Positions 22,782 through 24,747 of a stretch of DNA of 37,537 nucleotides are shown here, piece by piece; the stretch's first letter is position 1, and every line of letters starts with the position of its first letter. The stretch is taken from positions 1 through 37,537 of the forward strand of contig CAMGAM010000001.1 of the NCBI GenBank assembly GCA_946007485.1. Reading direction: 5' to 3'. The notes beneath the pieces are model-generated. The model was not told the DNA's origin. It made no database searches and worked only from the letters and a program-made list of their open reading frames with translations. This DNA comes from an uncultured Mycoplasmatota bacterium (GTDB lineage Bacteria > Bacillota_I > Bacilli_A > RF39 > UBA660). Position numbers and translations under genes: made by a program.

Positions 22782-22834
22782 TTAATATTGTTATAATTTT
22801 AATTTTATAGTATAATTTACTAGAGGTGTGTAAA

Positions 22835-23149
22835 ATGCATATATATCAATATATTATTATTATAAGTATTTTACTTATAGTGTATTTTGCGATTAGAAAA
22901 TCAAATAAGAAAGATTTAAAGTTAGAATTTAATAAGTTAGTGGAATGTCTTGGTGGAAAAGATAATATTGTGGAGACAGAGATTGAAATGTCTAGGTTTA
23001 AAGTGACACTTAAAGATATTACGAAGGCTAATAAAGAAGGAATTATTAAACTTGGTGCTAAAGGTGTAGTTGAGATAGATGATCAACTAAAGATAATATT
23101 TGGAAGTGAAGCTAAACAATTAAGGAAATTTATTAATGAACTTAGGTAG
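22835..23149 (+). CDS. Membrane-anchored PTS EIIB(Glc-family)-like domain protein lacking the phosphocysteine
   Basis: Start at ATG 22835 behind SD AGAGGTG. One TM helix (IIIISILLIVYFAI). LGGKDNIVETEIEMSRFKVTLKDITKANKEGIIKLGAKGVVEIDDQLKIIFGSEAKQL aligns without gaps to E. coli PtsG IIB, [58 protein letters not shown]. Confidence 0.7.
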   Translation: MHIYQYIIIISILLIVYFAIRKSNKKDLKLEFNKLVECLGGKDNIVETEIEMSRFKVTLKDITKANKEGIIKLGAKGVVEIDDQLKIIFGSEAKQLRKFINELR

Positions 23150-23171
23150 TTGAATCGTCAACTACTTTTTT
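23146..23171 (+). terminator. Intrinsic terminator after the EIIB-like gene
   Basis: GTAGTTGA (23146-23153), ATCG loop, TCAACTAC (23158-23165), then TTTTTT. Confidence 0.75.
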
Positions 23172-23215
23172 CGACATAGAATTACATATACGACATAATT
23201 CGACAAAATACGACA
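23170..23215. promoter_or_regulatory. Four direct T(T/A)CGACA repeats (reverse-complement Spo0A '0A box' TGTCGAA) upstream of the histidine kinase
   Basis: TTCGACA at 23170-23176 and 23199-23205. TACGACA at 23189-23195 and 23209-23215. Spacing is 19, 10 and 10 bp. They sit immediately upstream of an AT-rich -10 region (TATAAT 23227-23232). Confidence 0.5.
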
Positions 23216-23248
23216 TGAGAATAATATATAATTTAACTAGGTGATGAT

Positions 23249-24454
23249 ATGGAGATTGTGGTAAGTATAATTTTAATAGTTTTTCCAATTCTTATGTATT
23301 TAGTATTTTGTTGTTATAATGTACTTGTTAATAAAAATATGGCTAGAATAGTTTTTATTATTACAATGTGTACTTCTTTATATTTTTGTTTAAGAACTAA
23401 TATAGGACATAGTGAAATGCTTATTTTTTGTAATATTCCAATAATTATATGTTATTTAAAGAAAGAAGAAAAGTTTGCAGTAGTTTTATCAATAATGGCA
23501 ATTATTTTTGGATACTTTAGATATGATATGAATACTTATATAGTTATATTTAAGCATATATGTTATTTAATAGCTTATATATTTACATATAAAAAGAAAT
23601 GTTTTAATTCATTATATTTAAAATTAAGTGCTATTATTCAAGGCTTTTTTGTATCTTTTGAATATTTTATGATTAATGATAATGGGATAGATAAAATATT
23701 TAGTTTAATACTTTATATTTTAATAATATATTTAATTACTTTCTTTTGCTTATATTTATTTAAACTAGCTGATAACATAACTTTGCTTTATTTAAATATG
23801 AATAAAGTTAATGATGAAAATAAACTTAAGAATTCATTATTTAAACTTACACATGAGATTAAGAATCCAATAGCAGTATTTAAAGGATACTTAGATATGA
23901 TGAATTTAGATAATGTAGAAAAAAGTAGAAAATATATTAATATTATTAAATCTGAGATATATAGAAGTTTAAATGTTATAAGTGATTTTATTGAGTATAT
24001 TAAAGTTAAAGTAAATAAAGAAATATTTGATATGGTAATGCTTATGGATGAGTTGTATGATTCATTTAAAATATTACTTGGTGATAAAGATATTAAATTT
24101 AATTATCATAATCAATATGATGAGATATATTTATGGGGAGATTATGAGAGATTAAAACAAGTATTTGTAAATATAATTAAAAATAGTGTTGAAGCAATTA
24201 CTTCTGATGGTATAATAGATGTAGATGTTAGTTTAAGTGATAAGTATGTATTTATTAAGATTAAAGATAATGGTATAGGAATGACTGAAGAAGAACTTGA
24301 GAAAGTAAGTGAAATGTTTTGGACTACGAAGAAGAATGGTACAGGATTAGGAGTAGCTTTATCAAATGAAATAATTATGGCTCATAATGGAGAGATTAAA
24401 TATAATTCAGTTAAGAATAAAGGAACTGAATGTATTGTTAGTTTGCCTTTATAA
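23249..24454 (+). CDS. Orphan sensor histidine kinase (polytopic N-terminal domain)
   Basis: About six TM helices. H-box LTHEIKNPIAV, N-box VFVNIIKNSVEAI, G1 DNGIGM, G2 GTGLGVALS. No response regulator gene is present in the window. SD AGGTGA. Confidence 0.85.
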   Translation: MEIVVSIILIVFPILMYLVFCCYNVLVNKNMARIVFIITMCTSLYFCLRTNIGHSEMLIFCNIPIIICYLKKEEKFAVVLSIMAIIFGYFRYDMNTYIVIFKHICYLIAYIFTYKKKCFNSLYLKLSAIIQGFFVSFEYFMINDNGIDKIFSLILYILIIYLITFFCLYLFKLADNITLLYLNMNKVNDENKLKNSLFKLTHEIKNPIAVFKGYLDMMNLDNVEKSRKYINIIKSEIYRSLNVISDFIEYIKVKVNKEIFDMVMLMDELYDSFKILLGDKDIKFNYHNQYDEIYLWGDYERLKQVFVNIIKNSVEAITSDGIIDVDVSLSDKYVFIKIKDNGIGMTEEELEKVSEMFWTTKKNGTGLGVALSNEIIMAHNGEIKYNSVKNKGTECIVSLPL

Positions 24455-24477: not shown

Positions 24478-24747
24478 ATGGTTGATATATTTTTAGAAAG
24501 ATACCCCAAGATTGATTTACATGGATATGATAGAGATAGTGCTAGGTTAATGGTAAATGATTTTATATCTGATAATATAATACTTGGAAATGAAATTATA
24601 GTTATTATTCATGGTAAGGGATCAGGAATATTAAAGAAAGAAGTGCATGAAGCGCTTAGAGTAAATAAATGTGTTTTAGAATATAAAACAGATAATTTTA
24701 ATGATGGATGTACAGTAGTAAAATTAGTTAAAAAAATTAGATTATAA
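24478..24747 (+). CDS. Smr (small MutS-related) domain protein
   Basis: 89 aa with IDLHGY...IVIIHGKGSGILK, the Smr nuclease-domain motifs. Confidence 0.75.
   Translation: MVDIFLERYPKIDLHGYDRDSARLMVNDFISDNIILGNEIIVIIHGKGSGILKKEVHEALRVNKCVLEYKTDNFNDGCTVVKLVKKIRL

Follow-up and report, generated by a model that had tools for sequence, protein, structure and literature searches.

A conserved 0A-box array in the promoter of an orphan histidine kinase gene suggests a Spo0A feedback loop in a lineage of reduced genomes that retain sporulation genes

Results

Four 0A-box-like repeats precede an orphan histidine kinase gene

The window, by which we mean the whole 37,537-nucleotide stretch of DNA that was analysed, is contig C1 of an uncultured Mycoplasmatota assembly of 951,681 bp (27.5% G+C, 105 contigs, ~70% complete). 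The features of the locus are given below, with promoter positions counted from a kinase start site that was predicted solely from the TATAAT hexamer.

22826-23149, + strand: gene for a membrane-tethered EIIB-like small protein (PF00367 PTS_EIIB, E 7e-7)
23146-23171, + strand: intrinsic terminator of the upstream EIIB-like gene (stem GTAGTTGA/TCAACTAC, loop ATCG, T run merging into box 1)
23170-23176, + strand: distal 0A box, TTCGACA, exact (about -70 to -64)
23189-23195, + strand: 0A box, TACGACA, one mismatch (about -51 to -45)
23199-23205, + strand: central 0A box, TTCGACA, perfect (about -41 to -35)
23209-23215, + strand: proximal 0A box, TACGACA, one mismatch (about -31 to -25)
23227-23232, + strand: -10 hexamer, TATAAT, at a fixed distance in orthologues
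23239-23245, + strand: ribosome-binding site, AGGTGAT, with GGTGAT kept ahead of the ATG in orthologues
23249-24454, + strand: gene for an orphan polytopic membrane histidine kinase of 401 aa (HisKA, PF00512, E 3e-8; HATPase_c, PF02518, E 1e-22)
24478-24747, + strand: Smr-domain gene (PF01713, E 2e-16), 23 bp after the kinase stop

From the stop codon of the EIIB-like gene to the start codon of the kinase gene, the layout is:

...TAG GTAGTTGA ATCG TCAACTAC TTTT[TTCGACA]TAGAATTACATA[TACGACA]TAA[TTCGACA]AAA[TACGACA]TGAGAATAATA TATAAT TTAACT AGGTGAT GAT ATG

The original prediction placed T(T/A)CGACA here four times as direct repeats starting at 23170, 23189, 23199 and 23209, with spacings of 19, 10 and 10 bp, and these values were borne out, all copies lying on the + strand. 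The likeness to the 0A box TGTCGAA, whose core is also written TGNCGAA, held as well, as two boxes match it exactly on the other strand and two with one mismatch. The four boxes thus stand head to tail on one strand, with the three proximal ones exactly 10 bp apart. Spo0A contacts the bases G2, C4 and G5 of TGTCGAA, and the Clostridium difficile protein has the same specificity (PMC3485338); the equivalent positions of TTCGACA, C6, G4 and C3, are kept in 4/4 of the boxes in the window, and the T/A alternation, the only variable position of the box, is uncontacted according to the same study. The array was also said to fill the -35 region, which it does and exceeds, because the boxes span about -31 to -70 from the predicted start.

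A genome-wide motif scan, proposed with the original prediction as a check for enrichment at the kinase promoter, found strong enrichment by counts, shuffles and Markov simulations. The window holds 11 copies of TWCGACA against 3.1 expected, a number reached in 0/100 shuffles, and the genome has only 125 (0.95 Mb). Arrays of at least three TWCGACA occur genome-wide at only two places, the kinase promoter and contig C101. In 40 first-order Markov genomes there were 0 clusters of at least three boxes within 46 bp, against three overlapping triplets in the real one, and same-strand pairs of boxes within 12 bp numbered 4 against 0.025 per first-order Markov genome.

Several other identities for the repeats were rejected on sequence, namely ComK K-boxes (AAAA-N5-TTTT), DnaA boxes (local form TTATCAACA), hexamer repeats of the WalR/PhoP type and a sigma-H promoter, for which a GAAT -10 is missing.

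The promoter has the layout of the spoIIG type

A terminator hairpin directly precedes the array, and its RNA fold is supported by a free energy of -11.9 kcal/mol (z = -3.4); an automated terminator scan reported nothing at 23146-23171. A hairpin with a T run occurs at the same place in orthologues, with different stem sequences. No TTGACA-like hexamer is found 16-18 bp upstream of TATAAT, and the promoter has no usable -35 because the hexamer 17 bp upstream of the -10 reads CAAAAT. Instead, the central box sets its TCGACA 21 bp from TATAAT in the window (22 bp in most orthologues), while the proximal box is separated from the -10 by 11 bp, a distance that is 12 bp in most orthologues. This combination, in which a good -10 goes with a -35-like 0A box at 21-22 bp and no -35 at 16-18 bp, is that of spoIIG-type promoters.

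In Bacillus subtilis, spoIIG has a Spo0A-activated sigma-A promoter in which a 0A box or -35-like element is separated from the -10 by 21-22 bp rather than by 17; another box is placed 10 bp ahead of it, a distal site is found further up, and the boxes have the TTCGACA orientation on the coding strand. The kinase promoter shares the long-spacer box, the second box at 10 bp, the distal site and the orientation with the B. subtilis spoIIG and spoIIE promoters. It differs from spoIIG in having an extra box at about -31 to -25 and in that its target is a kinase gene and not the genes for pro-sigma-E processing; activation, moreover, is presumed here. Weak 0A boxes are the subject of Baldus (1994), as cited in PMC11210211.

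At both the spoIIGA promoters (L095-L099) and the kinase promoters (23227-23251 in the window) the -10 lies just 5-7 nt ahead of the Shine-Dalgarno sequence. This implies that the leaders would be very short, starting at or in the ribosome-binding site.

The array is conserved in relatives

Orthologues of the kinase were found in 12/13 congeners, with 56-68% identity, and the array is in all of their promoters. The congener consensus reads T-run, TTCGACAAAA, ~12 nt, TtyGACATAA, TTCGACAAAA, TTCGACAT, 12 nt, TATAAT, 6-7 nt, GGTGAT. An alignment of the promoters of the 13 congeners, anchored on the central box, gave the following information content.

Central box: 2.01 bits per column, nearly invariant in the 13 congeners
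Proximal box: 1.73 bits per column
Upstream phased box (23189 in the window): 1.27 bits per column, the least conserved of the phased triplet
Distal box: 1.10 bits per column, TTCGACA or TTTGACA at -79/-80 from the ATG in congeners
Spacers within the array: 0.70 bits per column
Spacer from the last box to the -10: 0.34 bits per column

Conservation extends to other genera, where protein identity falls to 33-50% and 29/30 kinase promoters hold an exact TTCGACA about 22 bp from the -10; a phased second box matches at least 6/7 positions in 17 of the 30, and the rest keep nnnGACA. The objection that the array might be absent from orthologous promoters of related strains falls, since it was found in the congeners and in about 30 other genera, with boxes kept in the 29/30 promoters just described. 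The array is a strong phylogenetic footprint.

The kinase and its neighbours

The kinase has both HisKA and HATPase_c domains and an intact H-box (LTHEIKNP). Its residues 1-171 include four uncharged runs of at least 13 aa and further hydrophobic stretches, consistent with a polytopic membrane protein. Of its relatives with solved structures, the sporulation kinase KinB scores best (3D36, E 6.5e-26). The NCBIfam KinD equivalog matched only the catalytic core, with 98 bits where its cut-off is 775, and the protein falls outside every named Kin equivalog.

The EIIB-like gene lies directly upstream on the same strand in 40/44 kinase loci across the family (loci L003-L163), and its product is 53-91% identical between them, above the 33-68% of the kinase. 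The conserved terminator and the 0A-box promoter sit between the two genes. It is possible that the EIIB-like protein assists the kinase or supplies its input signal. Downstream, the Smr-domain gene is probably co-transcribed with the kinase gene; it is found on the same strand in 11/12 congeners and in 1/32 more distant loci.

Sporulation genes and Spo0A in the lineage

A spo0A gene, on whose presence the original prediction depended, was confirmed in the window genome (Spo0A_C 137.7 bits, C48:4509-5273), and the sporulation genes spoIVA and spoIIGA-sigE were found as well. Relatives have genomes of 0.8-1.5 Mb. In the family, the Spo0A C-domain was detected in 59/61 sampled genera and SpoIVA in 53/61, and spoIIGA-sigE was present in 5/5 genomes examined. 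Because Spo0A, SpoIVA and spoIIGA-sigE are present, the lineage appears to be one of reduced genomes that keep the sporulation programme. The SpoIIE equivalog TIGR02865 had no match in five congeneric genomes having spoIIGA-sigE and spoIVA, in which the protein has either diverged strongly or been replaced. With the sigF model, sigma factors matched only below threshold, and the best-scoring locus is not a spoIIAA-AB-sigF operon.

In seven genomes (G018, G022, G023, G024, G056, G077 and G085) the spoIVA match breaks in two near residues 120-124 of the ATPase domain, and its pieces are found either on separate contigs or, where one contig holds both, as much as 17 kb from each other. Such a pattern suggests that a skin-like element interrupts spoIVA in several genera.

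The C-domain of Spo0A aligns to that of the B. subtilis Spo0A-DNA complex 1LQ1 with an E value of 1.6e-46. Its recognition helix, TTxSRVERAIRHAIEV, is identical to that of B. subtilis Spo0A apart from x, and the same SRVERAIRHAIEV helix is found in 1LQ1 and 1FC3.

The same boxes occur at canonical Spo0A targets

In this lineage boxes are found at spo0A, spoIIGA, comK and the oriC/dnaA region, all canonical targets of Spo0A. A genus-wide search for the tandem TTCGACA-N3-TTCGACA with at most one mismatch gave 36 matches, against 1 for the reversed motif used as a control, and nearly all of them lie at the kinase gene, comK, spo0A or oriC. The spo0A promoter reads ATCGACA-N3-TTCGACA-12 bp-TATAAT (C48:4446-4462, locus L060), a design kept in all 13 congeners (L061-L075). 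The comK promoter has three phased boxes followed at 12 bp by the -10 and is conserved in congeners (L034-L056). At both spo0A and comK the distance from box to -10 matches that of the proximal box of the kinase promoter. At spoIIGA a single box, TTTGACA-21 bp-TATACT, is present in 5/5 genomes at the position of the central box of the kinase promoter. Two congeners (L111, G003:C30; L127, G011:C3; ~1480-1560) have tandem boxes interspersed with DnaA boxes (TTATCAACA / TGTTGATAA) directly ahead of dnaA, which suggests that Spo0A acts at the replication origin as in B. subtilis.

The second array of the window genome, on contig C101, consists of three perfect TTCGACA boxes with exact 10-bp spacing (C101:1073-1099) ahead of a comK homologue (PF06338, E 4e-36; C101:1143-1604) that lies between dnaN and recF, beside the replication origin. 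This contig is 99.2% identical to one of G016, a genome of another genus. As C101 may be mis-binned one way or the other, the conclusion on comK rests on the congeners' own dnaN-comK-recF loci.

Two further observations were made. One or two 0A boxes, oriented against the genes, lie in an intergenic gap of an operon of the signal-peptidase / TasA-camelysin-like type (C39:7401; L136, G010:C4:94476). On the opposite strand, TTCGACAAAACTAG is perfectly conserved in 4/4 congeners (L100-L103, ~2443-2452), just 3' of a 74-aa open reading frame that follows a sigF/sigG-like gene.

The kinase and Spo0A are the only orphans in the genomes surveyed

The absence of a cognate response regulator from the window, noted in the original prediction, was upheld, as there is no receiver domain anywhere on contig C1. 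In the 95%-complete congener G010 (four contigs) there are three non-hybrid kinases, two of which adjoin response regulators, the third being the orthologue of the kinase described here; the one hybrid kinase adjoins a REC-domain protein. Spo0A is the only unpaired DNA-binding regulator of that genome and the kinase its only unpaired working kinase. A census of G010, G005 and the window genome left the kinase and Spo0A as the only orphans. No Spo0F-sized receiver was found in the G010 census, and the Spo0B model had no match except, below threshold, the kinase orthologue's own DHp domain. Because neither Spo0B nor Spo0F was found, direct phosphorylation of Spo0A is the likely route.

Across the family, orthologues of the kinase occur in 41/61 genera (E <= 1e-30). 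They are present in 39/52 SpoIVA-positive and 2/9 SpoIVA-negative genomes (Fisher 0.004, a value that ignores kinship). The kinase is not universal, since 13 SpoIVA-positive genera are without an orthologue at E <= 1e-30.

The lineage also encodes polytopic membrane proteins of about 590-617 aa, in which a degenerate kinase core with a weak HATPase_c domain is followed by a receiver domain. The copy in the window genome (C15:2397-4175) reads NMTQEIRET at the H-box, with Gln in place of the phospho-His, and because of this replacement these proteins should be unable to autophosphorylate. G010 has five paralogues (C3:70188, C3:205025, C3:208836, C2:175441 and C2:180092). One possibility is that they serve as phosphate sinks, or as decoys, for the single orphan kinase.

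Discussion

We propose that a Spo0A~P operator, embedded in a sigma-A promoter with a good -10 (TATAAT) and no -35, switches on the gene for an orphan histidine kinase and that this kinase phosphorylates Spo0A, a circuit that we consider rather probable. Spo0A~P would bind head to tail on the 10-bp-phased boxes and turn on the kinase gene, and the kinase would most likely phosphorylate Spo0A directly, with no phosphorelay. Since the spo0A promoter has the same design, the two genes may form a double positive feedback loop that would commit the cell to sporulation, and comK could be on the same switch. The Spo0A feedback loop on a candidate sporulation kinase that the original prediction envisaged is supported by the spo0A gene, the conserved array, the motif enrichment, the same boxes elsewhere and the status of the kinase as sole orphan; binding, activation rather than repression, and phosphotransfer are the parts that we infer.

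As to the sign of the regulation, activation by Spo0A~P is the effect that we favour and, judging from promoter layout, think fairly likely, because the central box places its TCGACA 21-22 bp ahead of the -10, as at spoIIG and at spoIIGA of this lineage. An alternative is that Spo0A~P does bind the array but with repression or a pulse as the net effect, the central box activating and a later filling of the weaker boxes shutting the kinase gene; the outcome would be negative feedback or a temporal gate and not a latch. The central box is perfect and its two neighbours carry one mismatch each, which would fit such an order of filling. The proximal box, at about -31 to -25, is inside the core promoter, where sigma region 4 or the spacer would be, and B. 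subtilis PcomK has both activating and repressing Spo0A sites, of which the repressing R1 overlaps the -35 (PMC3297582); by analogy with PcomK, and given the place of the proximal box, the array could repress, or activate and then repress. However, as it has no -35 at 16-18 bp, the promoter should show almost no activity unless an activator is present. A box in the same position is also found at spoIIGA, a gene whose expression sporulation requires, and at spo0A, whose autoregulation in model species is positive (PMC12090719). We consider repression or a pulse unlikely.

The activity of the kinase itself might also run the other way. HisKA kinases are commonly bifunctional, and the protein could be mainly a phosphatase or inhibitor of Spo0A, in which case its Spo0A-driven expression would be a brake on sporulation. 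Three orphan histidine kinases reportedly inhibit sporulation in C. difficile (10.1101/2021.11.18.469199). Against this, the kinase is the only unpaired one with an intact H-box in near-complete congeners, where no other phosphodonor for Spo0A is evident, and its presence correlates positively with that of SpoIVA, so that we regard a main role as phosphatase as improbable.

The original prediction left room for another response regulator that binds direct repeats. OmpR/PhoB-type regulators bind direct repeats phased at 10-11 bp, and three OmpR-family regulators are encoded in the genome (on C64, C13 and C72), any of which might be the binder if the likeness to 0A boxes were coincidental. The 7-mer, however, is an exact 0A box and not a hexamer of the WalR or PhoP type, the boxes recur at loci that Spo0A targets in B. 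subtilis (spo0A, spoIIGA, comK and oriC), and the recognition helix of Spo0A is unchanged, all of which makes a different binder very improbable. That the repeats are tandem -35-like hexamers or AT-rich low-complexity repeats serving no regulator is hardly credible, for although TCGACA agrees with TTGACA at 5/6 positions and a promoter scan gives TCGACA-16-TAATAT and TCGACA-17-CATAAT among many chance matches, those pairings are not conserved, in contrast to the TATAAT at 12 and 22 bp from the boxes, the CG core persists despite a background of 27.5% G+C, and such clusters never arise in simulations.

With Spo0A as the regulator and activation as the favoured effect, the proposed circuit can be set beside known systems. 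In B. subtilis, Spo0A~P increases the expression of spo0A and spo0F by direct action and that of kinA by way of AbrB/sigma-H (PMC12090719; Fujita and Sadaie, 1998, as cited in PMC11210211). Both systems would have a master regulator that feeds back on genes for phosphate supply and on its own gene. The kinase arm in B. subtilis is, however, largely indirect and sigma-H dependent, with a four-step relay in between, whereas here the wire would be direct, of the sigma-A type and to a single kinase, with no Spo0F or Spo0B found. Orphan HisKA kinases of clostridia, such as Cac0323, Cac0903 and Cac3319 of Clostridium acetobutylicum, act directly on Spo0A without a phosphorelay (PMC7098912, PMC11210211). 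The original prediction had invoked these clostridial kinases; its direct route appears likely, as no Spo0B or Spo0F was found, but the clostridial setting does not apply, as NCBI labels the relatives Erysipelotrichaceae/Bacilli. The clostridial species concerned have several orphan kinases, with PAS or other sensor domains; the single one of this lineage has a polytopic membrane sensor and lies beside a conserved EIIB-like gene. In the literature searched, 0A-box arrays were not found reported for the promoters of those clostridial kinases. At B. subtilis comK, multiple 0A sites bind Spo0A~P directly (Mirouze et al., 2012, PMC3297582). The comK of this lineage is also multi-box and has the box-to-(-10) distance of the kinase promoter; in B. 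subtilis the sites are degenerate and scattered and fall into an activating and a repressing set, whereas those of the lineage are near-perfect, strictly phased at 10 bp and common to the kinase and spo0A promoters.

Much of this rests on established ground: 0A boxes, Spo0A autoregulation, the spoIIG-type promoter, Spo0A at comK and oriC, and orphan kinases that act on Spo0A are already known. What the present case would add, on the strength of sequence comparison, is a direct and strongly conserved 0A-box operator on the kinase gene in a lineage with a single candidate kinase. A direct 0A-box operator on a kinase gene itself was not found described in the literature searched. More speculatively, and with rather low probability as a complete scheme, the lineage may have a minimal circuit for the initiation of sporulation, consisting of one kinase and Spo0A, with both genes as well as comK and oriC wired directly through 0A boxes, and with the membrane-tethered, Cys-less EIIB-like protein, encoded next door in nearly all loci, as signal input. 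If true, the EIIB-like input would tie sugar or PTS status to the sporulation decision in a 1.2-Mb genome.

Where Spo0A obtains its phosphate outside Bacillus is not yet settled, and most anaerobes have so many candidate kinases that the relevant ones are difficult to single out. The reduced genomes studied here narrow the choice to one kinase, whose promoter is marked by what would be the regulator's own operator, and they may offer a compact natural example of a double feedback loop between a kinase and a regulator. The value of the finding lies in annotation and in regulon reconstruction for uncultured spore-formers and not in a new mechanism, and it provides a testable candidate for the trigger of sporulation in widespread uncultured bacteria of the gut and rumen.
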